DNA of 32,000 bases from an uncultured archaeon (GTDB lineage: Archaea > Iainarchaeota > Iainarchaeia > Iainarchaeales > CSSED10-239), in assembly GCA_964586355.1 (NCBI GenBank), contig CAZPGO010000019.1, forward strand, positions 5,345-37,344. The letters are read 5' to 3'. The position numbers and the translations under genes are program-made. The notes under the pieces were generated by a model that saw only the letters and a program-made list of their open reading frames with translations, did not search any database and had not been told where the DNA came from. Positions 6,060-28,591 of the stretch are shown piece by piece. Position 1 is the first letter of the stretch. Each line of letters opens with the position of its first letter.

Positions 6060-6659
6060 ATGAAATTATTTAATAAATGGGAAACAAATGCAATAAACCA
6101 TAAAGATTTAGGGCTTTCAAAATATATTAATCTTAATGATAGAATTGTTCCAAACTCTTTTGGATCAACAAATAATTTAGCAAACAGAAAAACAAAGATT
6201 AATGTTATTGAAAGACTTGCAAATAAGATGATGAGATCTGGACAAGGAAAAAAGAAACTTTCTGGTAAATATATAAGAAACAGAAACGGTTGTGGAAAAA
6301 AGGATCAATCCATTAAAAGTGTAGAAATGGCTTTTGATCACATTCATGCTGTAACAAAAGAAAATCCTGTTCAGATATTTGTACAAGCAATAGAAAACTC
6401 AGCACCAAGAGAAGACATTACCAAGTTACAGAAAGGAGATATTACTTATACTCAATCAGTAGATCTTGCTCCAATCAAAAGACTTGATGAATCTTTAAAG
6501 AATATTGCTCTTGCTTGTTTTAAGAACACTTTTAAAACAAAAAAAGAGCCACATATTGCATTAGCAGAAGAGATCATAGACGCTTCAAAGAATGATCAAA
6601 AAAGCTTTGCTGTAAAAAGAAAAGATGAAATTGAAAGAATTGCTCAAGGTTCAAGATAA
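6060..6659 (+). CDS. rps7: Ribosomal protein uS7
   Basis: N-terminal KLFNKWE...LGLSKYINL and the C-terminal KKDEIERIAQ(G)SR pattern are typical of archaeal S7. 199 aa, follows rps12, SD AAGGTG upstream. Confidence 0.9.
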   Translation: MKLFNKWETNAINHKDLGLSKYINLNDRIVPNSFGSTNNLANRKTKINVIERLANKMMRSGQGKKKLSGKYIRNRNGCGKKDQSIKSVEMAFDHIHAVTKENPVQIFVQAIENSAPREDITKLQKGDITYTQSVDLAPIKRLDESLKNIALACFKNTFKTKKEPHIALAEEIIDASKNDQKSFAVKRKDEIERIAQGSR

Positions 6660-7546: not shown

Positions 7547-8426
7547 ATGCAAAATAATTCAATAGCAATTTTTGAAAATAAAAAAATAAGAAGAATCTGG
7601 CATAATGATAAATGGTGGTTTGTTTTAGAAGATGTTGTTTTTATACTTATTGATTCTTTAGATGTTAAACAATATATAAATAAAATGAAGCAAAGAGATG
7701 AATTTCTTTCTAAGGGTACAAATTGTACACACCCTTTCTGTTAAAACAATTGGTGGACCACAAAATATGAATTGTGCAAATACAGAAGGATTATTTAGAA
7801 TTATTCAGTCCATACCTTCTCCAAAAGTAGAACCATTTAAATTATGGCTTGCAAAAGTTGGTTATCAAAGAATGCAAGAGATTGAAAATCCAGAACTTGC
7901 TCAGAAAAGAATAATTGAGATCTATAAACAAAAAGGATATTCTGATGCTTGGATAGACAAAAGAATAAGGGGTATTGCAATTAGAGACGAATTAACTTTT
8001 GAATGGCAAAAAAGAGGAATGAAAGGAGATAAAGATTTTGTAATATTAACAGCTGAAATATCAAAAGCCACATTTGAGATGACTCCAAAAGAATACAAAA
8101 AATTTAAGGGTCTAAAAAAAGAAAATCTTAGAGATCATATGAATGATCTAGAACTAATTTTTACACTGTTGAAAGAATCTGTTACTAAGGAATTAACAGT
8201 TAAAGAAGGTCCAGATAATTTTCCAAAAACAAAAACAATTGCAAAACGTGGTGGTGGCGTTGCTGGTATTGCCAGAAAAGTAACAGAAAAAGAGCTTAAA
8301 AGGAAAGTTTCTACTAAAGACAATTATTTAAAAATTCCAGAAAAGCAAAAAAGATTACTAAAAAGCCCAACACCAAATAAGAAAATAAAGTATGGTATTT
8401 CTAAGAAAAAATTAAATAAAAAGTAA
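7547..8426 (+). pseudogene. Bro-N / DinD-like (phage-antirepressor-type) gene disrupted by a frameshift near nt 7715
   Basis: ORF 7547-7744 encodes a Bro-N-like N-terminus (IAIFENKKIRRIWHNDKWWFVLEDVVFIL). ORF 7698-8426, in another frame, continues with GGPQNMNCANTEGLFRIIQSIPSPKVEPFKLWLAKVGYQRMQEIENPELA and KKFKGLKKENLRDHMNDLELIFTLL. These resemble the continuation of Bro-N/DinD-family proteins as I recall them. The two frames overlap by 47 nt. Confidence 0.6.
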
Positions 8427-8567: not shown

Positions 8568-8609
8568 AAACACAAAGGTGAAAAACAAAAAACAATTTAG
8601 GTGAAAAAA

Positions 8610-10808
8610 ATGGGAAGAAAAGAAATAGTTGCAGAACTTGCATCAAAATTAATGGCAAACACAAAAAATATTAGAAATTTAGCTATAATAGCACACATTG
8701 ATCATGGTAAATCAACATTAACTGATAATTTAGTTGCTACCGCCGGATTAATCTCAAAAGAACTTGCAGGACAACAAGTTTTTATGGATTCATATGTTTT
8801 AGAACAAGAAAGAGGAATAACAATTAACTCTTCAAATGTTTCTGTTCCTTGTGATTTTTTAGGAGAAAAATATCTTATTAATATTATTGATACTCCAGGT
8901 CACGTTGACTTTGGTGGAGATGTTATAAGAGCTATGAGAGCTGTTGATGGAGCTGTTTTAGTTGTTGACTGTGTGGAAGGAGTTATGCCACAAACAGAAA
9001 CTGTTTTAAGACAAGCATTAAAGGAAAGAGTAAAACCTGTTTTATTTATTAATAAAGTTGATAGACTAATAACAGAAATGAATGTTACTCCTGAGGATAT
9101 GCAAAAAAGATTTGTAAAAGTAGTAATGGATATTAATAATTTAATCTCTAAAAATGCACCAGAACAATTTGTAAAAGATTGGCAAGTAAGTATTAAAGAT
9201 GGATCTGTATGTTTTGGTTCTGGTTTTCATAACTGGGCATTATCTGTTCCTGCTATGGGTAGATATGAAATTAAATTTTCAGATGTTATTGATTATTGTA
9301 AAAATGATAAACAAAAAGATCTCTCTCAAAAAATACCAATTAGTGAAGTGTTTATAGAAATGGTTTCTAAGCATTTACCAAATCCTCTAGAAGCACAAAA
9401 ATACAGAGTGCCAATTATTTGGAGTGGAGATTTAGAAACACCTGAAGGAAAAGCAATGACCGAATGTAAAGCTACTGAAGATAATGTTGCTATGATGATT
9501 ACAGATGTTGTTTTAGATAAACATGCTGGAGATATTGCTTCTGGGAGAGTATATGCTGGATCTATAAAAAAAGGAATGGATCTAAAAGTACTTGGTTTAG
9601 ATAAAACTGCAAAAGTTCAACAAGTAGGAATCTATTTAGGTCCTGAAAGAGTAATATTAGATGAAGTTGTTGCAGGAAATATTGCTTGTATTGTTGGTAT
9701 GAAAGAAGTATATGCTGGTCAAACACTATCAAACAAAGAAATGAATCCTTTTGAAGACTTTATGTCTGATGTTGAACCAGTAATGACTGTGTCAATTGAA
9801 GCAAAGAATAGTAAAGATCTTCCAAAATTAATAGAAGTTGTTCACAATATTACAAAAGAAGATCCAAATATCCGAGCTGAACTAAATCAAGAAACAGGGG
9901 AGCACTTAATTTCTGGTATGGGTGAATTACATCTAGAAATAACACAATATAAAATAGAAAAAGATAATAATATCCCAATAACCGTAAGTCCACCAATTGT
10001 TGTATATTACGAAACTATTCAAAAAGCTTCTGAAGTTATTGAAGGAAAGTCCCCAAATAAGCACAATAAGTTTAAGTTTAGAATTGAACCAATATCAGAA
10101 GAGATGTTTGCTAAAGTTAAAGCAATTAAATTTGATGGCAAAATAAGACCTAATAAAGATACAGAAATAATCAAAAAATTCCAAGAAGCTGGTTTTGGTA
10201 CAGATGAAGCAAAAAATATTTGGGCTGTTCATAATAATTGTATATTGATTAATAGAACAAAAGGTATTCAAAATCTATTTGAAACAAGAGAATTAATCAT
10301 AGACGGTTTTAATGATGCTACAAAAGAAGGACCAGTAGCAAAAGAAAAAGTTTCAGGAATGATTGTTAATCTAGAAGATGCAACTCTTCACGAAGATGCA
10401 ATTCATAGAGGTCCAGCACAAGTTTTACCTGCTGTAACTAGACCAATATATGCAGCTATGCTTTCAAGTGATTATACATTATTAGAACCAAAACAAAATA
10501 TATCTGTTTCAGTACCACAAGATTTTATGGGTGCTGTTAATAAAGTTCTATCAGGAAGAAGAACACAAATAGAAAATATTAATATGGAAGGAGACTCTTG
10601 TGTTGTTATTGGAAAGATTCCTGTAAAGTCATTGATTGGGTTAAGTCAAGAGATGAGAGGAGAAACACAAGGAAGAGCTATTTGGACTGCAGAATATGCT
10701 GGTTACGAAAAGTTACCAAAATCTTTGCTTATGACTACAATTGCAGAGATAAGGACTAGAAAAGGTATGGATCCTGAACCAAAGTCTGCTGAGTTTTTTA
10801 TGGACTAG
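8610..10808 (+). CDS. fusA: Translation elongation factor 2 (aEF-2)
   Basis: G-domain motifs AHIDHGKST, DTPGHVDF, NKVDR. Diphthamide-loop motif HEDAIHRGPAQ. I prefer ATG 8610 over GTG 8601 because AGGTGA sits 6 nt upstream of 8610, the same spacing as for rpoA2, rps12 and rps7. Confidence 0.95.
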   Translation: MGRKEIVAELASKLMANTKNIRNLAIIAHIDHGKSTLTDNLVATAGLISKELAGQQVFMDSYVLEQERGITINSSNVSVPCDFLGEKYLINIIDTPGHVDFGGDVIRAMRAVDGAVLVVDCVEGVMPQTETVLRQALKERVKPVLFINKVDRLITEMNVTPEDMQKRFVKVVMDINNLISKNAPEQFVKDWQVSIKDGSVCFGSGFHNWALSVPAMGRYEIKFSDVIDYCKNDKQKDLSQKIPISEVFIEMVSKHLPNPLEAQKYRVPIIWSGDLETPEGKAMTECKATEDNVAMMITDVVLDKHAGDIASGRVYAGSIKKGMDLKVLGLDKTAKVQQVGIYLGPERVILDEVVAGNIACIVGMKEVYAGQTLSNKEMNPFEDFMSDVEPVMTVSIEAKNSKDLPKLIEVVHNITKEDPNIRAELNQETGEHLISGMGELHLEITQYKIEKDNNIPITVSPPIVVYYETIQKASEVIEGKSPNKHNKFKFRIEPISEEMFAKVKAIKFDGKIRPNKDTEIIKKFQEAGFGTDEAKNIWAVHNNCILINRTKGIQNLFETRELIIDGFNDATKEGPVAKEKVSGMIVNLEDATLHEDAIHRGPAQVLPAVTRPIYAAMLSSDYTLLEPKQNISVSVPQDFMGAVNKVLSGRRTQIENINMEGDSCVVIGKIPVKSLIGLSQEMRGETQGRAIWTAEYAGYEKLPKSLLMTTIAEIRTRKGMDPEPKSAEFFMD

Positions 10809-11029: not shown

Positions 11030-11254
11030 ATGGTTGCAACAAAAAAGAAAGCACCTACTAAGAAGGTTGTAAAGAAAGCACCTGCTAAGAAGGTTGTAAA
11101 AAAACCTGTAAAGAAGGTTGTAAAGAAAGCACCTGCTAAGAAGGTTGTAAAGAAACCTGTAAAGAAGGTTGTAAAGAAAGCACCTGCTAAAAAGGTTGTA
11201 AAGAAACCTGTAAAGAAGGTTGTAAAGAAAGCACCTGCTAAAAAGAAAAAGTAG
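11030..11254 (+). CDS. Lys-rich tandem-repeat protein (histone-H1-tail-like, putative nucleic-acid-binding)
   Basis: 74 aa composed only of M, V, A, T, K and P. The unit KKAPAKKVVKKPVKKVV is repeated. A strong SD GGAGGG lies 5 nt upstream of the ATG, and T-tracts follow the stop. Confidence 0.7.
   Translation: MVATKKKAPTKKVVKKAPAKKVVKKPVKKVVKKAPAKKVVKKPVKKVVKKAPAKKVVKKPVKKVVKKAPAKKKK
11045..11245 (+). repeat. In-frame 51-nt tandem repeat: three full units at 11072-11122, 11123-11173 and 11174-11224, plus partial flanking units
   Basis: Direct reading: AAGAAAGCACCTGCTAAGAAGGTTGTAAA(A/G)AAACCTGTAAAGAAGGTTGTA repeats with 1-2 substitutions per unit. Confidence 0.9.
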
Positions 11255-11338: not shown

Positions 11339-12451
11339 ATGTTAAAGAAAATTGTTATTTTTGGTTCAGATACTAGTTATGGAAAAATAGCTTTTGATTT
11401 TTTTTCAAAGTTTTCTGATTCTTATAAAATTGTTGGTCTTACTTTTTCTAGTGATAGTTCTTTATTTCTTAAGCAATTAAAAGCTACAAATTCACAATTT
11501 GCTATGGTTTCAGATGAAAAGATATGTAAAGAAATTGAATTAAAATTAAACACTCCAAATTGTTTTTTTTTCTCAAAAGAGAATTCTATTAATTTTGTAA
11601 AAAATTCTGATGCAGATATTTATGTGTTTACTGAGTCAAATACTAGTACTTTAAAAAACATTTTATCTATAATATATGATCAAAAAGATGTTGTTTTAAT
11701 GTCTGTTGATCTAATTTTATTTTCTGGAAAAATTCTGAAATATGAAGCAAAATTAAAAGGCATTAATCTATATTCTATTACTTTACAAAACTATTCTTTA
11801 AATCAATTTTTAAAAGTTAGAAATATTAAAGAGTTGGACAAAATCATATTACTAACACAAAATAACAAATATACAAAAGAGGATGTAGAAGAATTTAAAA
11901 ATCAAAAAAAAGATTTCTATAGATTTAAAAAATGTTTTTATAGTTTTACAAAATTTAATTTAGTACAACAATTATATTTAATAAATTATTTATATGATAT
12001 TTCTCCAGAAAAATTTGACTATTTTAATCAAAGTAAGAATATTATAAGTCTCATTACTGAGTTTTCGGATGGTAGTAATTTAATTAATACCACAAATAAC
12101 GATATTTATCCAGTTTTATATTATTATTTTTGTAAAGACAAAGAAGGCTTTAAAGATAAAAACTCTTTAATTTCAGGAGATAAAATAAATTTGTCCTTAT
12201 CAAGATTAGATCTTTTAAAAGAGCCTTTTATTAAATTAGGTGTTGATTTTTTAAAAAAAGGCGGTTCTTTTCCAATTGTTTATTTTTTAGCTTTTGAAAT
12301 TTTAACTGAAAAATATTGGAATAATAAAATTAAGTATAAGGATATCTTAAAAAAGTTAGAAACCCTTTATAATGATAAAAAGTATTATGTTACAAAACCA
12401 GATCTTAAAACAATAATTGCTCTTAAAAAAAAATTAGAAAATAATCTATAA
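11339..12451 (+). CDS. Divergent 1-deoxy-D-xylulose-5-phosphate reductoisomerase (Dxr)-like protein with eroded cofactor and catalytic motifs
   Basis: 370 aa. By eye it is colinear with E. coli Dxr over the full length. [20 protein letters not shown] aligns with [35 protein letters not shown] aligns with [28 protein letters not shown] aligns with SMVRYQDGSVLAQ. The GSTGSIG, DSEH and HPQS motifs are not conserved. Confidence 0.5.
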   Translation: [370 protein letters not shown]

Positions 12452-13276
12452 TTTTATTTCTTTAAGATCTTCTGTTAAAACTATTTTTGAATTGCTTTTT
12501 TCTAAGGCTTGTTCTAGCATTTTTTTTGTTTTTAGAGAATTATTAATCTCTTCTATGGCGTATTTAGGAATTACATGACCAAAACAATATTTATTTTTTA
12601 AATTTATTTGGTATTTAAAAAATTGCGTACAATAATGAGATCCACCATAACCAACGGCTTCTGTCCAATTGTTTTCTTTTTTTATTTTTTCTTTATTATA
12701 ATATTTTAAGATTTCAATAATATTTTCAGCAATAAAGTTGATCCCTCTTAGATCGTTCCATTCTTCTAAACTAGATCCAATTTCTACAAAGATACTAGAG
12801 TATTCTATATAGGGTCCATGGTGTGTGGCTTCTTGTTTTGTTTTATATTTTTTAAATTCTTTATTTTTTATATTTATTTTTAGTATTATCTCTCTTAATA
12901 AGATTGGATCAGTTTTACATAAAAAACCAGGTTTTCCACCAAAATCCGCAGAGCCCCAATTACCGATTGCATGAGCTGAAAAAGATTTTTCTTTGTTTTT
13001 TGAGGTTGTTGAATGTTTGCTTAAAAAAATTACTTGCTCTATATTTTTTTCTAGACATTCTATCTTTTTATTAACTTCTTCTTCTGTTAGGTATATATGT
13101 AATTTCTCAAAATAGATCAAGAATATATCATTTATTGCATAATCTCCTTTTTCTTTATTTTCTTTAAGATAATAAACCTTTTCTTCTATCTCTTCAAAAT
13201 TATATTTATTAATTAAGCAATCAAAGAAATTATTTGAAGCAACATCCTCTTTTGAGCAAATAATTACAATATTCAT
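12446..13276 (-). CDS. dtdA: D-aminoacyl-tRNA deacylase, archaeal type (DtdA)
   Basis: MNIVIICSKEDVASNN N-terminus, HAIGNWGSADFGGKPG, EATHHGP, FVEIGSSLEEW and GYGGSHY all match conserved blocks of the archaeal tRNA_deacylase family. I prefer ATG at 13276 over the upstream TTG at 13294. Its stop overlaps the Dxr-like stop by 6 nt (convergent). Confidence 0.85.
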   Translation of the reverse strand: MNIVIICSKEDVASNNFFDCLINKYNFEEIEEKVYYLKENKEKGDYAINDIFLIYFEKLHIYLTEEEVNKKIECLEKNIEQVIFLSKHSTTSKNKEKSFSAHAIGNWGSADFGGKPGFLCKTDPILLREIILKINIKNKEFKKYKTKQEATHHGPYIEYSSIFVEIGSSLEEWNDLRGINFIAENIIEILKYYNKEKIKKENNWTEAVGYGGSHYCTQFFKYQINLKNKYCFGHVIPKYAIEEINNSLKTKKMLEQALEKSNSKIVLTEDLKEIKL

Positions 13277-13420
13277 AATATATTTTAGGTTCAACAGATT
13301 TATAAAATCTAATTTTCTTTAACCTTTATAATCTTTTCTAAAAAACAAATAGATTTATAACAATTTATTATAACCATATTTATTAGAAAGTAAATTTAAC
13401 TTAAAAGAGGTTGATAGAAT

Positions 13421-13774
13421 ATGATAAAGATCTTTACTAAACTTTATCCCTATAGACTAAATATAAAATCTAAAGAACCAGTTGATTTGGAAATAAAATT
13501 AAAAAACTTAAGTGCTTCTGCTAAACAAATAAGTATAGAACTAATTCCAGATTCTGATTTGTCATTTGAAAAAACAGGTTCTAAAAGAAATGAGTATAAA
13601 AGACTTGGAGTTATTAAGAGTAATGAATCTATAAATTTACACTATAGTGTTTACCCATTTACAGGTATAGTTCCAGGAAAACATTTTATTAAAATAATAG
13701 TTGGTGAACATACCGCTGATTATAATGTTGTTAATGAAAGTTATGAGGCTATGGTGTTAGTAAATACAGTATAA
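13421..13774 (+). CDS. Hypothetical protein, probably a small all-beta (Ig-like) domain
   Basis: 117-aa ORF with SD GAGGT upstream. It lies 11 nt upstream of glyA in the same orientation. No signal peptide and no recognisable motif. Confidence 0.45.
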   Translation: MIKIFTKLYPYRLNIKSKEPVDLEIKLKNLSASAKQISIELIPDSDLSFEKTGSKRNEYKRLGVIKSNESINLHYSVYPFTGIVPGKHFIKIIVGEHTADYNVVNESYEAMVLVNTV

Positions 13775-15723: not shown

Positions 15724-17247
15724 ATGAATGAATTTAAAAGAAAAATAAAGTTGCTAGATCATATTGTTTTAGAAGTAATAGAAAAAGAAAAAATACCATT
15801 AGTAGTATCCAATCAAAACTTTGCAGAAGCACACTCCAGAACTGTTGCAAGACTTAGTCAGAGTGCAAAATCTTTTGAGCAAATAGTAAAAGAGATATTA
15901 ACAGATGAGGGATTTGATAAAGAAAAGATTGGCAAATTCCATAAAGGAATAACTTTAGGAGTAGCACATCATTCTATAGAACAACATGGAAATGTTACTT
16001 TGTGTTTTGAAAACACAAGTATGCTTGTAACAAACAAATATTGTGAAAATAAAAGACTTGCTGCATACCTAGAAAAGTCTACAAGATATCAGGATTTTTC
16101 TAAGCCTTGTTATATTATTCCTAAGGAGTTTGATTTGCATGAAAATAGCGATCTTAAAAAAGAGTATGTTGAAACAATGGATTTTTTGTTTAGTACCTAT
16201 GCAATAATTTTGCCAAAAATAATTTCAAGAATAGAAAAGGAGTTAGAAAATAAGAATATTACTTTAGATCCAAAAAGTATTAGAAAAAAAGCATTTGATT
16301 CTGCAAGATATATATTGCCAGCAAGTGCTTATACCAATTTTGCAATTACTACAAATTCTCAGGTATTTAGATCTTTAATAGTAGATCTTTTATCAAATAA
16401 TATTACTGAATTTAATGAGATCGGAAAAGAAATGCAACAAGAACTAATTAAAGTATATCCAACACTTTTGGAAATGGAGACTTGTGTTATTAATAAAGAA
16501 AGAGAGAGGTTTAAAGATTCTTCTAGCAAAATAAATCCAATATCTTTAAATCCAAATAATAACAGTAATTTGAAGATAGATGATTTTGTTTTTGAAAATA
16601 TAGAAAATACAGTAAAAATTATAGAACACACAAGACACTCAGAAAAACTTTTAGTATATAATTATCTTTTAGATCTTGGGCATAGTGTTGATTATAGAGA
16701 AAATGAGGTCTTTTTAAATAATAATATTTTATCTAAAAAAGATTTAGAAAAATACCTAAAAGAAGCCTTTAACTTTGATTGTACCGGTTATAGACCACAT
16801 AGGGCTTTAGAGCTTGCAAACTATACCTTTGAAGGTATTGTTGATTTTGGTGCTTGGAGAGATCTTCATAGAAATAGAATGCTTACTTGGATAAGTAGTT
16901 TTGTTTCTCCAGAATATGGTTTTTCAATACCGGTGTTTTTGGAGGATTGTAGAGAAGAGTATCTTTTAGGTTTAAAAAAAGCCTATGGTTTTTGGACAAA
17001 ATTAATTAAAAGAGGATTTTCTAAGGAATTTTGTCAATATGTATGTCCATTAGCAACTAATGCTAAGATTTTGTATACCATAAATGCAAGAGAACTTGAT
17101 CATGTAAGTAAAACCAGAACTACAGAACACGCACATTTTTCATATAGATCTTTTGTTAATCAGTGTGTGTGTGAGGCTGAAAAAATAAACCCTGAAATTA
17201 TTAAGCATATTAAAAATTATTATAAAGAACCACATTCTTTTACATAA
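15724..17247 (+). CDS. thyX: Flavin-dependent thymidylate synthase-like protein with two tandem ThyX domains
   Basis: The C-terminal half has FGAWRDLHRNRMLTW (compare FVARQWFRHRIASY of T. maritima ThyX) and TINARELDHVSKTRTTEHAHFSYRSF (compare [26 protein letters not shown]). The N-terminal half has NKRLAAYLEKSTRY (compare RHRIASYNELSGRY) and ARYILPASAYTNFAITTN (compare ARIVLPLNLYTRFFWTVN). SD GGGAG upstream. Confidence 0.7.
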   Translation: MNEFKRKIKLLDHIVLEVIEKEKIPLVVSNQNFAEAHSRTVARLSQSAKSFEQIVKEILTDEGFDKEKIGKFHKGITLGVAHHSIEQHGNVTLCFENTSMLVTNKYCENKRLAAYLEKSTRYQDFSKPCYIIPKEFDLHENSDLKKEYVETMDFLFSTYAIILPKIISRIEKELENKNITLDPKSIRKKAFDSARYILPASAYTNFAITTNSQVFRSLIVDLLSNNITEFNEIGKEMQQELIKVYPTLLEMETCVINKERERFKDSSSKINPISLNPNNNSNLKIDDFVFENIENTVKIIEHTRHSEKLLVYNYLLDLGHSVDYRENEVFLNNNILSKKDLEKYLKEAFNFDCTGYRPHRALELANYTFEGIVDFGAWRDLHRNRMLTWISSFVSPEYGFSIPVFLEDCREEYLLGLKKAYGFWTKLIKRGFSKEFCQYVCPLATNAKILYTINARELDHVSKTRTTEHAHFSYRSFVNQCVCEAEKINPEIIKHIKNYYKEPHSFT

Positions 17248-21045: not shown

Positions 21046-21311
21046 TTTTTGTTCGTGCTCCTACAAATATATTTATTTTTAGTTGTTTTTATATATGTTT
21101 GTTTTTTATTTTAGAGTTGTTTTTGCACAATATCTTGGACAAGCCAACTTTTTTTAAAACAAAAAATAGGCATTTAAAAATAGATCCCCGTTTTTAACAA
21201 AAATTACTGATCTAAAAGATCTTACAATATATTTATATTTGTTTTTTAGAATAAGTAGTATAATAATGTTAAAAAATTAACTATGCTTATTTATCTTTGG
21301 AGATCTTATTT

Positions 21312-24300
21312 ATGAAAAAATTATTTTTGTTGTTTTTTTTAATACTTAACCTATCTATGGTATTTAGTCTGACTCCTAATTTCTTTAATAAAGTTAACTA
21401 TTATGATCAAATTATTGATGTTGGTGTTTTAGATAATAACCTTTCAGGAGATTTCTTAAAAATAACACTCTCAGATCAATATGAAACTTATTTTGAAGAG
21501 GCTTTTTCTATTAAAAATAGTAAAAAAATAGATGTTGTTTTTGATAGCTCTGTTTCTTCTTATCTTGTTGCAAACTATGAGGTTTTGGATTCTAATTATT
21601 CTATATTAGAGACCTATTCTTTTCCTTTATTTTTAGAGAGTATAGATCTTGGCAGAATTTTTTTGTGTGATATAAAAGAATGCCATTATTCTGATTCCAA
21701 AAAATATTTTGATAATAGTTCTAAAATCTACCTTAATGTTGATAATAATTTAGATGTTAATTATTCTCTTGATCTTTTTTTAAAAGAAGGAAAAAATTAT
21801 AAACTTTTATTTTCTGAAAGCACACATGTATTTCCTTATTTCTTAGCTATTGATGATTCTGGTTCTTATAAGCTGGTTTTAAGTTATTATTTTGAAGATC
21901 TAATTTTTACTAAAAAAACTTTTTTTGAGATTGGGTCTCTAGAGCCAATTTCTTCTGATAGTTTTTCTGAGAGTAATATTGTATATTCTGATTTTGTGGA
22001 TAGTAATTTAACAGAACCTGTTATAAATAAAAATACTTCTAATGATTCAAATACATTATCAGAGAAAAATTATTTTTTTCAAAATTCAAAAAATATTTTA
22101 GCTTTGCTCTTTATATCTATTATTTTAATTTTGATTTTAATAATTTTATTTACAAGTAAAAATAAAAGATCAAGACATAGAAAAATAGCTTCTTTTTTTG
22201 TAGTTTTTTTTATTTTTTTTAATCTAGGATCTGTTTTTGCAGAATCTGAAAACGTTGTGACTTTGGAAGGTAGTACAAAACTTAATGAGATATTTACTTA
22301 TTATAGAACCCTAAATGCAGCATCTAAAGACATAGTTTTTTCTTTTGAAATTAATGAAAGTCTAGAAGCTAATGACACTTTACTAGATAATTACCAGATT
22401 ATACCTTCTGATGTAGACGACATTTTTAGAGAACCGATATTAGATTTAGAATATTCTAATAGATTTTTAGATTTTGCTGAAATTTATTCTTTGGAAAACA
22501 GATTAGAAACTGTTTATTTTTTTAATATTAATAAAAGTAATTCTACAGAGTATATAAATAATTCTTGTTTTGAAAATATTAGTAATTATTATAAAAGCAT
22601 AGATTTTTTTGGTCAAACAAATATAATAAACGAACAAGAAACTATAAGACAGCTTTTTTTGCCAAGAACTAAACCATATATTGAATCAGAGCTAGAAAAG
22701 TTTGGAGATTCTGATTTTATTAATGATTGTTTTAATTTTTTATTAACTGAAAAAATACTTGTTCCCTATGATATTTTATTATATACAAAAGTGGAGCTAA
22801 AAAACATACCAAAAAATTTTGAGCTTTATATGTCTATTGAAACAATTAATTTTGAACCTCCTTTTTTAACAACAAAAAAACCATTGGATATATTAGTTTC
22901 TTTTAAAAGAACCCCAATAGTTATAGAATCTAGTTATTCTATGCCCTATAACTGCGATAAAGAAAATCTTAGTTATTGTTATATTAATAATTCTGACTTT
23001 GATTCAATTAAATATCTATCAGATACTGGTAGTATAGCAAGTCCAGAGTTTTATAAAAGAATGGATGATTATGCAAGTTATCTTAATAATTTTGATTTAG
23101 TAAAAGATCTATATAGAAAAGAGGTTGATGGAGTTAACATTAAAGATCTGCTCTCCTTTGCAGCAATTAATAGAGAAAATCTTTGTTTTTCTAATGAAAA
23201 AAGAGAATATAATGAATTAATTTTTGATGTAGCAAAGGCCTACAATTTTACAGACGAGCAAGCTTTACAGTTTTGGGCTTTGATTGCTGAGAGATCTAAC
23301 TGTGATATTAATTATGATGATGTTGATAATGATTTGCTTGGTCTTGCACAAATAGATTTAGAGGCATATTATAATCAGTATATTGATCTACATGCTTCTA
23401 TGCATCCATTTTTAAAAGAAGAAGAGTATCTTCAGTATTTAGTTTTAGGAGACTTTAAAGAAATAAATGAAAAAAATATAGCAAAATTTGATGCTGATAA
23501 AGTTATTAGATTTGGTGGGCTTTCTAGTAAAATAAGTAATATGTACTGGTATTATGAATTTCTTATAAAAGCAATAAAAAATAGTAAAGATAAATACGGG
23601 TCTTTAGTTTTGTTTGCAGGAACAGATTATTTAAAAGAAATGACTACTCTTGTTAATTTTTGTGAGAAGTATTATACAGATAACTATCTTGAAAATATCT
23701 ATTATGATTATGAATCTTTTGTGACAGATAATTTAAAAAAAAACTTAAGAAGCATTTTTGTTCTAAGTAGTTTACTGGATAAAAAAGAGTTCTCTTTTAC
23801 TGAAGAGATATGTAAGTATACTGGGGAGCCTGAGTCTATAGTTATGGAATATCCAATAATATATACAAATCTAACTGGCAATTATTGTATAGATAATGGA
23901 TTTGTGCCATCTGTTAATTATCCTAGATACAAAAAAATAGACGGTGTTACTTATCATGGAACTGGTGCTTTACTATATAAATGTGAGGATAATAAGATAT
24001 ATAGCTGTATTCCAGGAACAGAGATCATACAAGAAGTAAGTGGATCTGCAGTAAATATACTTAAAGAAGAGCTTTGTTCTAGAGAGCTAATTCTAAAAGA
24101 AAAAAGAGTTAAGATTTCTAAAGAGTTTAAGGTTTTAATAAATTATCTTGCAATAAAGCACAAATATTTGACTAATAGAGAATATTTTGTTTCTAATGGT
24201 TTTTTAGAAGACTCTTCTAATGACTCAAAGAAATTTCTTGAAAATAAAACAAATTATTTTAAATTGAAATATGATTATTTTGATATTAAAAAAGAGAATT

Positions 24301-25112
24301 TTTTAGAGATCACTGCTGAAAAAAATATTTCTTTGTTAAAAAGAATTGATCCAAATTATTATTTTGCAGAGATTTTACAAAATAGAAGAAGTTTAGCCTA
24401 TGCAAGGTCTGGTAACTGTGCTCAGTTTGTTAGAGAAATTGGAACAAATCTTTTTACTTCAGAGCTTTATCCAAGAGCAGGAGTTTCTGCTGCTTGGTTA
24501 TATGATACTACTCCAACAGTAAAAGAGAGATATAATTTAATTTGGGAATCTCCAATTGTTTGTTATAGTAAACCAGGAAACAGAAAATTACCAAGAAGTC
24601 GTTGTGTTGAGACCCCAGAAGTACAAAGTCCTACTTTAGATTTAGATCTGTTGCCTGATGGTGCGATCTTAGGTCTTTATGTTTGTAAACAAAGTCATGG
24701 GTCTTTAAGAAATCTAGAGTATACACATGTTGGGACCTATATTGGCAAAGATCAACTAGGTCATCATTTGTTTATACATATGGGTAATTCTAGATCTATA
24801 GAGATAATAAGTGAATATACCTCTCACATATGTAGTTCTGGGTATAATAGGCAAATAATGAGAGTCTATGTCCCAAAATCCACAGGAATAACTAGTATGG
24901 ATCAATTAAGGGAATTAAAAGAAAAAGATTTATTACAACCAGTTACCTGGATTAAAGATATTAACGAAGTTATAAATAGATCAAATGGACTAGAATATCC
25001 TGAATTTGGTATTCAAGATGAAGAAGAAATGGATTCTTCTGAATATGAATCAGATGATTCAGAAAGCGAAGATGCAGATCTTGAAGAAAATGCAGAGCAA
25101 GAATCTGAATAA
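21312..25112 (+). CDS. Large (1266 aa from ATG 21312) secreted, membrane-tethered protein with an SLT-like lytic-transglycosylase motif, an NlpC/P60- or CHAP-like cysteine-peptidase motif and an acidic C-terminal tail
   Basis: N-terminal signal peptide MKKLFLLFFLILNLSMVFS. TM hairpin at nt ~22094-22243. FWALIAERSNC...DLLGLAQIDLEAY (nt ~23270-23360) resembles the SLT E-S...GLMQ motif. SGNCAQFVREIG...LPDGAILGLYV...YTHVGTYIGKDQLGHHLFIHMGN (nt ~24410-24790) resembles NlpC/P60 or CHAP Cys...His blocks. The tail is DEEEMDSSEYESDDSESEDADLEENAEQESE. The CDS call is solid. Domain calls are about 0.45. Confidence 0.75.
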   Translation: MKKLFLLFFLILNLSMVFSLTPNFFNKVNYYDQIIDVGVLDNNLSGDFLKITLSDQYETYFEEAFSIKNSKKIDVVFDSSVSSYLVANYEVLDSNYSILETYSFPLFLESIDLGRIFLCDIKECHYSDSKKYFDNSSKIYLNVDNNLDVNYSLDLFLKEGKNYKLLFSESTHVFPYFLAIDDSGSYKLVLSYYFEDLIFTKKTFFEIGSLEPISSDSFSESNIVYSDFVDSNLTEPVINKNTSNDSNTLSEKNYFFQNSKNILALLFISIILILILIILFTSKNKRSRHRKIASFFVVFFIFFNLGSVFAESENVVTLEGSTKLNEIFTYYRTLNAASKDIVFSFEINESLEANDTLLDNYQIIPSDVDDIFREPILDLEYSNRFLDFAEIYSLENRLETVYFFNINKSNSTEYINNSCFENISNYYKSIDFFGQTNIINEQETIRQLFLPRTKPYIESELEKFGDSDFINDCFNFLLTEKILVPYDILLYTKVELKNIPKNFELYMSIETINFEPPFLTTKKPLDILVSFKRTPIVIESSYSMPYNCDKENLSYCYINNSDFDSIKYLSDTGSIASPEFYKRMDDYASYLNNFDLVKDLYRKEVDGVNIKDLLSFAAINRENLCFSNEKREYNELIFDVAKAYNFTDEQALQFWALIAERSNCDINYDDVDNDLLGLAQIDLEAYYNQYIDLHASMHPFLKEEEYLQYLVLGDFKEINEKNIAKFDADKVIRFGGLSSKISNMYWYYEFLIKAIKNSKDKYGSLVLFAGTDYLKEMTTLVNFCEKYYTDNYLENIYYDYESFVTDNLKKNLRSIFVLSSLLDKKEFSFTEEICKYTGEPESIVMEYPIIYTNLTGNYCIDNGFVPSVNYPRYKKIDGVTYHGTGALLYKCEDNKIYSCIPGTEIIQEVSGSAVNILKEELCSRELILKEKRVKISKEFKVLINYLAIKHKYLTNREYFVSNGFLEDSSNDSKKFLENKTNYFKLKYDYFDIKKENFLEITAEKNISLLKRIDPNYYFAEILQNRRSLAYARSGNCAQFVREIGTNLFTSELYPRAGVSAAWLYDTTPTVKERYNLIWESPIVCYSKPGNRKLPRSRCVETPEVQSPTLDLDLLPDGAILGLYVCKQSHGSLRNLEYTHVGTYIGKDQLGHHLFIHMGNSRSIEIISEYTSHICSSGYNRQIMRVYVPKSTGITSMDQLRELKEKDLLQPVTWIKDINEVINRSNGLEYPEFGIQDEEEMDSSEYESDDSESEDADLEENAEQESE

Positions 25113-25127: not shown

Positions 25128-26588
25128 TTAATTTTTTTCCACATTAAAAGCATTTTCTATTTCTTTTGGTTTTTTTGAGAAAAAGTCTATTGCTTCTTTT
25201 AGTTCTATATGCTCTTTTGCATATTCCTCAATTGAGATGCCCTTTTTATAAGCCTCACATGCCAAAACTAAAGCCCTTGACCCTGACCGTGTTCCTTTTG
25301 GATGAGCATGACACCCTGCACCCATAGTGGTTATAAAATCTATTGACCCCATAACATCTATAAACGGTTTTAGTAATGTAGGGTTAAGACCACCAGACAC
25401 TATTGGTGCACACTTTTTTACTCCTCTCCAAGAGTCGTCTTTTAGGATAATGTGGCCAATTCTGTCTTCTTGAACCATTTTTAAAGCATCTTTGTCATCT
25501 TCAGGTATTTTTGACCAAGATTGATCAAAGAAATGTCCTGTTGCTGAAAAATCTAAAATACCGTCTGCTGCGGTTATATCTTCTTTAGGTGTTCCTTCCA
25601 TTTTACCAACACCAGCAGTTCCTGTATGTATTCCGGATGCTCCCGCTAATCTTGCAAATTTAGATAAAACTAGAACAGAGAAACCAAATGCATTTTCTGG
25701 TCTTGTAAATGCTCCATGTGCTGCTCTATGGAAGTGTATAAATACATTTGGATATTTTCTTCTTAAGGTTTGAACAGCCATCCACCCAGCAGTAATTCCA
25801 TCAATTAAGAACGCATAAGATCCCTCTTCAAAGCCAGCATTTCTGATCATCTCACATCTATTGATCATGGTCTCAAAATCAGAAGCAGAAACATTAAATG
25901 AATGAACTTTTTTTTGTCCTGTTTCTTTTACTGCTTTATCCATAGCTTCTTTTACATGTTTAACCATCTTTTCATAAGGGCAAAAATCTTGATCTGCTTG
26001 TGGCTCATCATTCTTAACGAAATCGCCTCCACCAACCCAAAAATCATAGCACACTTCTGCATATTCTGCACTTGTTAGTCCCATTTTTGGTTTTACTATT
26101 GTTCCTAATATTGGTCTATCATAAACTTGTAAATAATTTCTCATATCGTCAAGAGTGTAACTAGGTCCATCAAATTGTTCTAACATTGCTGGAGAGAACC
26201 AAACATCTAATAGTTTTAGAGCTGATACTTCTTTCATGCCTAGCACATTTCCAACAACATAGGTTAAAATGTTTTGAACATTTCCAATCCTGTCAAACAA
26301 TCTCCATGGAAAAGCTATCCAGACAAGATTTTTTTCTTGATCTAGTTTGTATACTAAAGCATTCATTTCTCTGGAAAATGCTGTTTCAGTATTTACCTTA
26401 AAATTAGTTCCTGTTGATGATTCTGCTGCAACCTCTGCTGCTGCTTGTAAGATGTTTAATGATCCTCCTGGAACTAAATGGAATATTCCTAACATATATT
26501 CTCCATTTTTTTCATTTGGGATCTCAAAATTTACATAAGCTTTTTGTTTATCATTTAGTGTTTCGTATAATTCTTTTTCTGTTAACAT
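25128..26588 (-). CDS. rbcL: Ribulose-1,5-bisphosphate carboxylase/oxygenase large subunit, form II/III-like
   Basis: TIVKPKMGL, GGGDFVKNDEPQ (form II-type context), HFHRAAHGA, GIHTGTAGVGKMEG, PIVSGGLNP and MGAGCHAHP are all present. 486 aa, with an extra segment between QSW and the SGG loop. Confidence 0.93.
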   Translation of the reverse strand: MLTEKELYETLNDKQKAYVNFEIPNEKNGEYMLGIFHLVPGGSLNILQAAAEVAAESSTGTNFKVNTETAFSREMNALVYKLDQEKNLVWIAFPWRLFDRIGNVQNILTYVVGNVLGMKEVSALKLLDVWFSPAMLEQFDGPSYTLDDMRNYLQVYDRPILGTIVKPKMGLTSAEYAEVCYDFWVGGGDFVKNDEPQADQDFCPYEKMVKHVKEAMDKAVKETGQKKVHSFNVSASDFETMINRCEMIRNAGFEEGSYAFLIDGITAGWMAVQTLRRKYPNVFIHFHRAAHGAFTRPENAFGFSVLVLSKFARLAGASGIHTGTAGVGKMEGTPKEDITAADGILDFSATGHFFDQSWSKIPEDDKDALKMVQEDRIGHIILKDDSWRGVKKCAPIVSGGLNPTLLKPFIDVMGSIDFITTMGAGCHAHPKGTRSGSRALVLACEAYKKGISIEEYAKEHIELKEAIDFFSKKPKEIENAFNVEKN

Positions 26589-27145: not shown

Positions 27146-28591
27146 ATGTTTTTAAAAAAATATTCTTTTTTAATCTTAATATTTTTATTTATTTTACACT
27201 CTGTATCAGCAGATTCTGTACTTTTTAATGTTTCTAATTCCACAGAAGCTTCTTTTTTAAATTATCAAACAAAAATAGACCTTAACAGTTCTTTACCTGC
27301 TGATTTTAATTGGGATAATTTAGGTAAAGATCTTTATTTTCAATATAACGATGGTAATAATATTCCTTTTTGGATAGAATCTTGGAATAATTCTGAGCAA
27401 GAAGCAGAAATTTGGTTAAAGATCTCTATTAACCCAGAATCAGAAATAATAGTTAAGATGTTTTATGATGGTGAGTCAGATCTTTCTTTAAGTAATGGTG
27501 ATGCTGTTTTTATTTTTTTTGATGATTTTGAGGAAAATAAAATTATTAATTATTCTCCTACTGGGTTAATAAATGCAGATCAAAATTTAAATATTCCTAC
27601 TTATGATGGAAGTGGTCAAAATGTTCATCCCTCTTTAGTATATTTTGAAGAACCTTTTAATAGTTGGAAATATTGGATGGCAATTACTCCATATGCAGAT
27701 AGTAATGAGGATCTAGAAAACCCTTCAATTGTTGTTTCTAATGATGGAAATACTTGGCAAATACCAGAAGGTCTAACAAACCCTATTATTCCATATCCTG
27801 GTGGTCAAGAGTTTAATTCTGATCCAACTTTATTTTATGATGGAAACAAATTTGTTTTATATTATAGAGAAGGATGTAATATTACAGTTAATGGAGATAA
27901 AATAAAATATGTTTATTCTTATGATGGTATAGAATGGTTACCAAAAGACGACACTGAAATTAATCCTATATTGGTTTTAGAAAAGGCTCAAAATCAATTA
28001 ATTGCACCAACGATTATATTTAAAGATGATATTTATTATATGTGGGTTGTGGAAGTTGATACAGATAATCCCCCATCAAGATTAGTAAGATATAGTTCTG
28101 ATGATGGGATTAATTGGGAAGATGTTGCTCATCCAAAAATAAATACTAATATTTCTGGCTTTGTTGATAATAATTTGCATATTTGGCATCCAGAAATAAA
28201 ATATATTCCTGAATTTCAAGAATATTGGATGATAACATCAGCATACCCTTATGACTATGGTGTTGGAACATCTTCTGATACTTATTTTGCAAGAAGTGTT
28301 GATGGTATTAACTGGACTGTCTATACTGATTACAAATTACTTGCAAAAAAGTTAGGTTCTTGGGATAGTAGAGGAATATATAAATCAACATTTTTATTTG
28401 ATGAAACAACAAACAAAATCAGAGTTTGGTATTCTGCAACAAAAACAGGATTTCCTATTTTGTGGAATACTGGTTATACTGAAGAAGATTATAATTTAGT
28501 TTTAAAAAGATTAGATAGTAATTTAGTAAAATGGCATTTTTCAATCAAGGTGCACAAGGTGCAACAGCTAATATTTCTTCAGGGGTTATAG
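27146..28591 (+). CDS. Secreted protein: DUF2341-like domain followed by a beta-propeller glycoside-hydrolase-like domain. Probably the N-terminal part of a frameshifted larger gene.
   Basis: Signal peptide MFLKKYSFLILIFLFILHSVSA. IPFWIESWNNSEQEAEIWLKISI is typical of DUF2341. NVHPSLVYFEEPFNSWKYWMAITPYADSNEDLENPSIVVSNDGNTW and repeated W/DG motifs resemble five-bladed propeller GH-like proteins. The last ~17 aa look like out-of-frame read-through. Confidence 0.65.
   Translation: MFLKKYSFLILIFLFILHSVSADSVLFNVSNSTEASFLNYQTKIDLNSSLPADFNWDNLGKDLYFQYNDGNNIPFWIESWNNSEQEAEIWLKISINPESEIIVKMFYDGESDLSLSNGDAVFIFFDDFEENKIINYSPTGLINADQNLNIPTYDGSGQNVHPSLVYFEEPFNSWKYWMAITPYADSNEDLENPSIVVSNDGNTWQIPEGLTNPIIPYPGGQEFNSDPTLFYDGNKFVLYYREGCNITVNGDKIKYVYSYDGIEWLPKDDTEINPILVLEKAQNQLIAPTIIFKDDIYYMWVVEVDTDNPPSRLVRYSSDDGINWEDVAHPKINTNISGFVDNNLHIWHPEIKYIPEFQEYWMITSAYPYDYGVGTSSDTYFARSVDGINWTVYTDYKLLAKKLGSWDSRGIYKSTFLFDETTNKIRVWYSATKTGFPILWNTGYTEEDYNLVLKRLDSNLVKWHFSIKVHKVQQLIFLQGL

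Follow-up and report, generated by a model that had tools for sequence, protein, structure and literature searches.

A Probable Dxr-Derived Pseudoenzyme Maintained by Selection in Iainarchaeota

Results

The Dxr-like gene and its relationship to Dxr

In this work we analyzed a stretch of 32,000 nucleotides (hereinafter, the window) from an uncultured archaeon of the Iainarchaeota (assembly GCA_964586355.1, contig CAZPGO010000019.1, positions 5,345 to 37,344), which contains an open reading frame (ORF) related to Dxr, an enzyme of the methylerythritol phosphate (MEP) pathway of isoprenoid synthesis. The ORF (11339..12451, forward strand) starts with ATG and encodes 370 amino acids plus the stop; its product is derived from Dxr/IspC and belongs to a small, Iainarchaeota-specific family whose members keep the Dxr fold, have lost its catalytic residues, and are probably pseudoenzymes. 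The GC content of the window is about 24–33% throughout. The other genes include the C-terminal part of RpoB, the split RpoA'/RpoA'', an L7Ae/L30e-family protein, S12, S7, and archaeal elongation factor 2 (EF-2), and further along an archaeal-type DtdA, SHMT, ThyX, and a homolog of the RuBisCO large subunit; the split RpoA'/A'', the archaeal EF-2, the archaeal-type DtdA, and the L7Ae/L30e protein identify the host as an archaeon.

An earlier note on this DNA, made from the letters alone, had described the product as a colinear, full-length homolog of Dxr, and profile, sequence, and structure comparisons fully support that description. The Pfam models of both ends of Dxr match above their gathering scores: PF02670 (DXP_reductoisom) at residues 5–120 (E 4e-10, 40.9 bits vs 21.7) and, marginally, PF13288 (DXPR_C) at residues 284–365 (27.8 bits vs 27). 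In a Pfam scan of the family (E ≤ 1), the former was found in 13/13 members and the latter in 11/13. The NCBIfam Dxr equivalog models match with E 9e-30 and 1.6e-20, covering residues 1–362 and 2–366, and the stronger match runs end to end (residues 1–362 against model positions 1–370 of 389). Moreover, a phmmer search of the PDB sequences returned Dxr chains only (best 6mh4, E 7e-12, with residues 2–359 colinear with 1–362), and the hhalign comparison of the family profile with a profile of 21 true Dxrs gave a probability of 100% and E 1.1e-39 over 371 columns, with 22% identity. The AlphaFold2 model, built from a shallow alignment, is still confident (mean predicted local distance difference test score, pLDDT, 88.2; predicted template modelling score, pTM, 0.87), and the top 50 PDB matches that Foldseek found for it are all Dxr, with template modelling (TM) scores of 0.76–0.84 (about 0.82) over the whole chain, across 374–415 columns. 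Thus, the ORF is a true colinear full-length Dxr homolog, far beyond chance; the agreement of the profile, profile–profile, and structure matches implies that the resemblance is no artefact of an AT-biased sequence, a doubt that the earlier note had itself raised.

The model and the alignments display the three-domain architecture of Dxr (Rossmann, central catalytic/dimerisation, and C-terminal helical), with all the corresponding segments on the forward strand. The N-terminal Rossmann-like domain (residues 1–146; 11339..11776) carries the PF02670 match and is the best conserved domain within the family; the central domain (residues 147–275; 11777..12163), equivalent to the catalytic/dimerisation domain of Dxr, keeps the fold and has lost the catalytic signature; the linker and the C-terminal helical domain (residues 276–370; 12164..12448) carry the PF13288 match and retain GGSxP at 308–312, where G309 and P312 are common to the family and true Dxr. 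Neither the tRNA nor the Rfam scan of the window gave a match, which means that the locus carries no RNA element. A TATA-like TTTTATAAAAAA located by eye about 36 nucleotides upstream of the ATG is expected by chance in DNA of 26% GC, and we did not count it as evidence.

Loss of the catalytic, cofactor-binding, and substrate-binding residues

The residues were compared in a MAFFT L-INS-i alignment of 15 family members, 39 true Dxrs taken from databases, and the E. coli Dxr (40 true Dxrs). The E. coli sequence was validated by the occurrence of DSEH, E231, H209, S186, and S222 at their published indices, and the mapping of the motifs agrees in three alignments (HMMER pairwise, MAFFT L-INS-i, and hhalign). 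The true Dxrs show no variation (40/40) at G8, G11, G14, K125, E126, D150, E152, S186, N227, K228, E231, and H257. Seven of these residues (G11, K125, D150, E152, S186, K228, and H257) have given way to others throughout the family (15/15), and E126 has done so in 14 of 15 members; H209 is also replaced in all 15, by F, Y, L, or Q. In the window protein, G8 and G14 correspond to G9 and G15, and N227 to N207; G11 has become T12, K125 V123, E126 D124, D150 T148, E152 Q150, S186 Q174, K228 L208, E231 Q211, and H257 S237.

The four motif changes that had been read by eye all withstood this comparison, two of them with a qualification. The dinucleotide-binding loop GSTGSIG of Dxr is degenerate, reading GSDTSYG (residues 9–15; 11363..11383, forward strand) with T in place of G11; in the family, the G11 position is T, S, N, or R in 15/15 members and the T10 position is D, N, or Q. 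The metal-binding DSEH (E. coli D150, S151, E152, H153) is replaced by TLQN (residues 148–151; 11780..11791, forward strand), and in all 15 members the D150 position is S or T and the E152 position is non-acidic. The residue alignment places Q211 (11969..11971, forward strand) at the position of E231, the third metal ligand; this Q is specific to the subclade of the window protein, the position being D/E in 10/15 members and H in one. Finally, HPQSxIHS is replaced by NQSKNIIS (residues 230–237; 12026..12049, forward strand), with both histidines gone and S or N at the H257 position in 15/15 members; the NQSK stretch (residues 230–233) has a register ambiguity of one residue. The only substrate/phosphate binders left in the window protein are the equivalents of S222 and N227 (S202 and N207). 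In addition, the flap loop (H209-P-N-W-S-M-G) is about 8–10 residues shorter in the family, with the M214 column gapped in 15/15 members.

The profile models are in agreement with these replacements. PF08436, the model of the catalytic domain, matches 0/13 family members at E ≤ 1 vs 21/21 true Dxrs, and it does not match the window protein even at E ≤ 10. The window protein falls below the NCBIfam equivalog cut-offs of TIGR00243 (73.4 vs 315.7 bits), NF009114 (103.8 vs 461), and NF003938 (47.7 vs 515). True Dxrs cross-match weakly generic NAD(P)-binding models (Semialdhyde_dh in 15/21, NAD_binding_3 in 12/21), whereas no family member does, which would fit the loss of the dinucleotide-binding signature. 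Comparisons of the family with Pfam, NCBIfam, and the PDB revealed no resemblance to enzymes other than Dxr. Hence neither of the two outcomes that would have undone the earlier reading, no match to Dxr profiles or conserved catalytic residues in a proper alignment, was observed.

Selection and integrity of the gene

The ratio of nonsynonymous to synonymous substitution rates (dN/dS, Nei–Gojobori method) between the window gene and relatives whose products are 84%, 81%, and 68% identical is 0.14, 0.17, and 0.23, respectively; all three domains are constrained, and the central one has values of 0.13–0.16. The controls from the same contigs gave 0.13 for DtdA and 0.03 for EF-2. Therefore, the gene is maintained under purifying selection and evolves somewhat faster than its enzymatic neighbor DtdA. 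The ORFs are intact (370–398 amino acids, without stops or frameshifts) in 15/15 members, down to 29% identity. The low dN/dS, the intact ORFs, and the kept locus (see below) together lead us to reject decay. The earlier note had weighed reuse of the scaffold against decay of an acquired gene, leaning toward retained function on account of the intact ORF; that preference gains from these data, while the decay option is excluded by them and by the fact that the motifs were lost in the whole family.

Distribution and phylogeny of the family

The family was defined by an exhaustive HMMER profile search of 1.84 billion representative proteins, which gave 1915 matches at E ≤ 1e-3; a word-indexed homolog search had returned only 5 members of the clade, so that the exhaustive search was needed to delimit it. 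The family comprises about 12 clusters at 50% identity, with ten full-length representatives scoring 217–686 bits and two fragments scoring 146 and 122. All the remaining matches score 124 bits or less and are ordinary Dxrs with every motif, leaving a sharp gap below 217. The best-scoring true Dxr (P0019) is encoded in a bacterial uppS-cdsA-dxr-rseP operon beside lpxC/lpxD. Another high-scoring true Dxr (P0022) is partly degenerate, with DDEP for DSEH, RHKFNMG for HPNWSMG, and GSTGKVG in the loop, and keeps LANKE, D150/E152, NK..E, and HPQ; judging from these motifs, constraint may have been relaxed or altered in this further Dxr lineage as well.

A scan of species-representative genomes with N-terminal peptide patterns, derived from the five-sequence clade alignment, found the family in at least four archaeal metagenome-assembled genomes (MAGs), among the matches listed. 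These are a genome named 'Candidatus ainarchaeum sp.' (L011; 68% identity to the window protein), an 'uncultured archaeon' (L012; 34%), the 'archaeon isolate ELA007' (L013; 34%), and a 'Candidatus Iainarchaeum archaeon' (L014; 28%, on a 671-kb contig). The named carriers are 'Ca. Ainarchaeum' and 'Ca. Iainarchaeum', that is, Iainarchaeota, the phylum (formerly Diapherotrites, DPANN) in which 'Ca. Iainarchaeum' is placed. The bacterial matches listed in the same scan (Victivallales and others) are biased and were not used to infer a donor. In MAG ELA007, a second, near-identical N-terminal fragment with an apparent indel (…NLDLLKQIKE…) lies at a contig end (L046, JBAWVI010000005.1, 10001..10165); duplication through assembly or between strains is a likelier explanation for it than a paralog.

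The phylogeny was constructed by neighbor joining on 13 family members and 29 true Dxrs, with 200 bootstraps; Poisson correction was used since the p-distances between the family and Dxr (>0.85) saturate the Kimura correction. The family was monophyletic in 200/200 bootstraps, and its stem is the longest internal branch (0.57 vs a median of 0.03). As the motif loss is common to the whole monophyletic family, it predates the family radiation. The picture suggested by the sequences would be that of a single origin, a burst of change in which the catalytic apparatus was lost, and a subsequent diversification. The earlier note had envisaged a horizontal acquisition; in this respect, the phylogeny supports one clade, but true Dxrs are all 14–21% identical to the family, so that the neighbor-joining tree is uninformative about the sister group and names no donor lineage.

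Distribution of conservation, hydrophobic pocket, and charge

In true Dxrs, the catalytic domain is the most conserved one, with a mean column entropy of 1.53 in the central, 2.11 in the N-terminal, and 2.25 in the C-terminal domain. The order is reversed in the family, where the central domain is the least conserved (1.85, against 1.73 in the C-terminal and 1.59 in the N-terminal domain). What is conserved in the central domain of the family is mostly an aromatic/hydrophobic core, together with the F-x-D-G-S hairpin common to Dxr, which we take to sit in the dimer-interface sheet of the published Dxr structures. The pocket has turned hydrophobic: the K228 position is L, F, I, V, or A in 15/15 members, H209 is F, Y, or L in 14/15, S151 is L, F, or Y in 13/15, and H153 is hydrophobic in 11/15. 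Conservation specific to the family peaks in residues 106–141 of the Rossmann-like domain, which include D117, E136, and K140; the near-invariant family-specific polar residues also comprise S110, S129, Y152, N216, Y217, Y219, Y263, and D355. In the loop, G9, G15, and D/N at position 11 are conserved, except that one member (P0017) has neither G9 nor G15.

All 15 family members are basic (isoelectric point, pI, 7.5–9.4; net charge from +1 to +23), while the median pI of true Dxrs is 6.25 and the EF-2, SHMT, RuBisCO, DHH, ThyX, and DtdA proteins of the same window have pI values of 5.65–7.68. Two members (P0010 and P0017) bear Lys-rich C-terminal tails.

Genomic context

The gene order at the locus is EF-2, a small Lys-rich ORF, the Dxr-like gene, DtdA on the opposite strand, and an ORF of 117 amino acids. 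This order is kept in loci in which the Dxr-like proteins are only about 29–36% identical, DtdA of the same pairs being 43–47% and EF-2 75–79% identical. The upstream anchor is the archaeal EF-2 gene (8601..10808, forward strand), whose product is 75–99% identical between loci; the window EF-2 is 94% identical to that of the 'Ca. Ainarchaeum sp.' genome (L011) and 79% to that of L014. Downstream, the gene for the archaeal D-aminoacyl-tRNA deacylase DtdA (12446..13294, reverse strand; PF04414, E 3.9e-48) converges on the Dxr-like gene and shares 6 nucleotides with its 3' end; wherever a locus extends far enough, the same neighbor is present.

The Lys-rich ORF (11030..11254, forward strand; 74 amino acids) is a conserved upstream neighbor made of (AP)AKKVVKK(PV)KKVVKK units; its DNA repeat has a period of 51 nucleotides (3.6 copies, 98% match), and a GGAGG stands 8 nucleotides upstream of the ATG. 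Its equivalents are 42 amino acids long in L014 (9707..9835, directly upstream of the Dxr-like gene) and 48–49 amino acids long, in the same place, in L008 (3368..3517) and L011 (2859..3005). The 74-residue product has no Pfam match, and its composition would make it resemble a histone-H1 tail. The 117-amino-acid ORF beyond DtdA (13421..13774, forward strand) is present in every locus examined (L004 9763..10116, L012 12009..12362, and L014 12029..12382) with 39–41% identity; its products share the motif IYPF(Q/T)GI(K/V/R)PG and have no Pfam match. With DtdA read from the other strand, and with synteny extending in any case over the entire RNA polymerase/ribosomal cluster, the context gives no firm functional link.

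Other genes of the window are worth recording in their own right. The ThyX gene (15724..17247, forward strand), near SHMT, encodes 507 amino acids, roughly double what is typical, and contains two Thy1 (PF02511) stretches, which points to internal duplication or fusion of a flavin-dependent thymidylate synthase; the 230-amino-acid ORF between ThyX and SHMT has no Pfam match. The RuBisCO large-subunit homolog (25128..26588, reverse strand; 486 amino acids; N domain E 5e-26, catalytic domain E 1e-88) is presumably of form III, the type that serves nucleotide salvage in archaea, a pathway common among DPANN. A 242-amino-acid ORF (in the window, 7698..8426, forward strand) with a weak Bro-N match (E 2e-6) separates S7 from EF-2 in both the window and L002; in its place, ORFs of 65 and 219 amino acids are called at 6209..7088 of L001, a locus with an identical Dxr-like protein; this difference could be strain-level variation or a mobile/viral-derived insert in a conserved translation cluster. 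Finally, the forward strand carries a very acidic ORF (21297..25112; 1271 amino acids, pI 4.7) without a Pfam match, a 481-amino-acid ORF with DUF2341 (27146..28591), and an 832-amino-acid ORF without any match (28531..31029); these large ORFs possibly encode surface/adhesion proteins like those abundant in episymbiotic DPANN.

Discussion

The probable nature of the protein

The whole body of data reported in this work suggests that the ORF probably encodes a lineage-specific pseudoenzyme derived from Dxr. It is very likely, on the strength of the missing residues, that the window protein does not carry out Dxr catalysis and is no evidence for a MEP pathway. Two features expected of a pseudoenzyme are found here: homology to an active enzyme family with loss of its essential residues, together with purifying selection and conservation across species. 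Hence, of the alternatives posed at the outset, a repurposed scaffold is the one that agrees with a family-wide loss of residues accompanied by selection and synteny.

We can outline how such a protein probably arose. Most likely, an ancestor acquired a bacterial-type dxr gene horizontally, as in other DPANN, and the residues needed by Dxr (G11, K125/E126, D150, E152, S186/K228, H209/H257, and the flap) were replaced before the family diversified, with E231 lost as well in the subclade of the window protein. The MEP pathway would not have been retained, and the Dxr-like protein would have had no further part in isoprenoid synthesis and would have been exapted; purifying selection has since kept the gene in the same place on the chromosome within one subgroup of Iainarchaeota. 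We propose with moderate confidence that its present role is non-catalytic and that the Dxr fold, stable and probably dimeric as before, would serve as a scaffold or bind a partner, with the formerly polar pocket filled with hydrophobic and aromatic side chains. The weakest step of this scheme concerns the partner: a polyanionic one, for instance nucleic acid, the ribosome, or the surface of a membrane, is weakly suggested by the basic charge of the protein surface, the tails rich in Lys, and the translation genes nearby.

Some points weigh against this interpretation. The near-invariant polar residues could form a new active or ligand-binding site, and the kept G9, G15, and D/N11 would leave room for some nucleotide-like ligand; the non-catalytic role itself is deduced from the want of a conserved polar constellation. 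The basic pI may derive in part from a Lys-rich proteome in a genome of 27% GC, as other unknown ORFs of the window are also basic. The horizontal origin is one that we infer from the distribution of Dxr in bacteria as against a single DPANN subgroup, and the tree names no donor. Lastly, the finding that no MEP-pathway gene lies near the Dxr-like gene applies to the 32-kb window.

The main competing explanation is that the protein is a neofunctionalised enzyme, with a new active site or substrate and possibly another nucleotide-type cofactor; we regard this as possible but not likely. Selection acts on the gene with the strength seen for a genuine enzyme, and the highly conserved segment 106–141 (K.ILS.I...KD..L...P.L.SGKI...E...KG) borders, in Dxr, the cofactor/substrate cleft, contains the near-invariant D117, E136, and K140, and has Y152, S153, and N216 nearby; moreover, besides the kept G9, G15, and D/N11, most members have acidic residues after strand beta2. 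However, no conserved cluster of His, Cys, Asp, or Glu has taken the place of the lost triad, most of the former pocket positions are hydrophobic or vary between members, and the central domain, where catalysis resides in Dxr, is the least conserved of the three; P0017 lacks even G9 and G15, and the want of similarity to other enzyme families in Pfam, NCBIfam, and the PDB does not help this explanation.

A more specific form of exaptation, namely a non-enzymatic factor acting either as a basic dimeric binder of nucleic acid or the ribosome, encoded among RNA polymerase, ribosomal-protein, EF-2, and DtdA genes and beside the conserved Lys-rich mini-protein, or as a carrier of a host-derived lipid or isoprenoid in the re-lined pocket, seems rather unlikely as far as the sequences let us judge. 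Doubtful to a greater degree is the idea that the protein is simply a binder of a hydrophobic ligand, whose re-lined cleft holds a lipid or isoprenoid-like molecule perhaps scavenged from the host. In this case, the systematic change of charged and polar pocket residues to L, I, V, F, or Y would be accounted for, and the reported loss of araM (PMC12892359) might be read as a dependence on external lipids, a step that is ours and is not stated in that paper. The idea is nonetheless purely inferential, the filling of a disused pocket with hydrophobic residues is the default outcome in pseudoenzymes, and the protein has no signal peptide, membrane anchor, or lipid-related gene context.

That the protein still works as a Dxr, with an active site that has diverged to an unusual extent, is very improbable. 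The full-length fold, the annotation of a family member as Dxr by the Joint Genome Institute (JGI), the presence of the S222 and N227 equivalents, and the D/E at the E231 position in 10/15 members speak for it; on the other side, every member lacks two of the three metal ligands, the loop glycine, K125, S186, K228, and H257, all of which are invariant in 40/40 diverse true Dxrs, the flap is short, the scores are 4–5 fold under the equivalog cut-offs, and no MEP neighbors occur in the window. As for neutral decay of a horizontally acquired gene (an unrecognised pseudogene), the erosion of all the catalytic motifs and the very long stem branch would suit it, but it is effectively refuted by dN/dS values of 0.14–0.23 with constraint in every domain, 15 intact ORFs of 370–398 amino acids, a conserved locus, and a confidently folded AlphaFold model.

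Implications

If a Dxr-derived pseudoenzyme is indeed what this gene encodes, some consequences follow. JGI annotates one family member (P0001) as Dxr, and, judging from the missing residues, this would be wrong, a functional over-annotation. From the Pfam matches, automated pipelines would credit Iainarchaeota with part of a MEP pathway, and spuriously so; the presence of the MEP or the mevalonate (MVA) pathway in DPANN feeds the arguments on the 'lipid divide' and on host dependence. Furthermore, the family would be a clean example in which an enzyme, probably gained by horizontal transfer, lost its chemistry and was nevertheless preserved by selection in an archaeon with a reduced genome; since reduced genomes are expected to purge useless genes, the Dxr-like protein must provide something to its host. 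Dxr is an antibiotic and antimalarial target and, to our knowledge, has been studied only as an enzyme. If the explanation as a non-enzymatic factor were true, this would be the first documented non-catalytic function in the Dxr superfamily and a lineage-defining innovation of one DPANN group. The immediate impact is modest, the family being small (about 12 clusters at 50% identity) and confined to one lineage.

Comparison with known systems

The nearest known system is Dxr/IspC itself (DXR-I, EC 1.1.1.267; PF02670 + PF08436 + PF13288; TIGR00243), with which the window protein shares family, three domains, length, and a colinear stretch of about 370 residues. The N-terminal beta1 M-K-x-I-x-I-L-G-S, D93, K116, G130, F242-x-D-G-S, and GGSxP occur in both. 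The family of the window protein differs in lacking the NADPH-loop glycine, K125/E126, D150, E152, S186/K228, and H209/H257, in its shorter flap, and in being basic, whereas true Dxr is acidic; it also lies beside archaeal translation genes, while the nearest true Dxr (P0019) is part of the bacterial operon described above.

A second term of comparison is the dxr acquired by horizontal gene transfer (HGT) in other DPANN (Woesearchaeota subgroup J, some Nanoarchaeota, and Micrarchaeota), which is likewise a bacterial-type dxr homolog in a DPANN host. Indeed, MEP genes obtained by HGT have been described in Woesearchaeota (PMC8421398), in 'a few DPANN archaea' (PMC6107057), in several orders of Micrarchaeota (PMC12892359), and in MAGs of Woesearchaeota and Nanoarchaeota (PMC10936187). 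The statement of the earlier note that archaea normally lack Dxr thus needs qualifying, in that complete or partial MEP pathways were gained by HGT in some DPANN (PMC6107057, PMC8421398, PMC12892359); a dxr homolog in a DPANN archaeon is, as a consequence, not surprising in itself. Iainarchaeota have been reported with MVA genes (PMC10936187, PMC6107057), and the former source gives them no MEP genes. The loss of glycerol-1-phosphate (G1P) dehydrogenase (araM) has been reported for the ancestor that Iainarchaeota share with B1Sed10-29 and Micrarchaeota (PMC12892359). The difference is that the dxr genes of those other DPANN occur with other MEP genes and are treated as functional, whereas the one analyzed here stands alone in the window and has lost its motifs. 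A literature search, in which subscription journals were only partly covered, found no description of an inactive Dxr or of a Dxr from Iainarchaeota/Diapherotrites; hence a pseudoenzyme branch of the Dxr family kept by selection would be, as far as we could find, previously undescribed.

DXR-II/DRL of Brucella and other bacteria is active and performs the Dxr reaction with a protein of a different family (PMC3847144). The likeness is in name only, and it represents the converse case, the window protein being a DXR-I homolog that appears to be without the chemistry. All the significant profile and structure matches of the window protein are to DXR-I, which places it outside DXR-II.

A conceptual parallel might be found in the NmrA-like regulators, in which, as we understand it, a dehydrogenase fold was kept after catalytic loss and reused for binding or regulation. 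The parent family is presumably unrelated, and we take NmrA to have kept dinucleotide binding, whereas the dinucleotide-binding loop of the window protein is degenerate.

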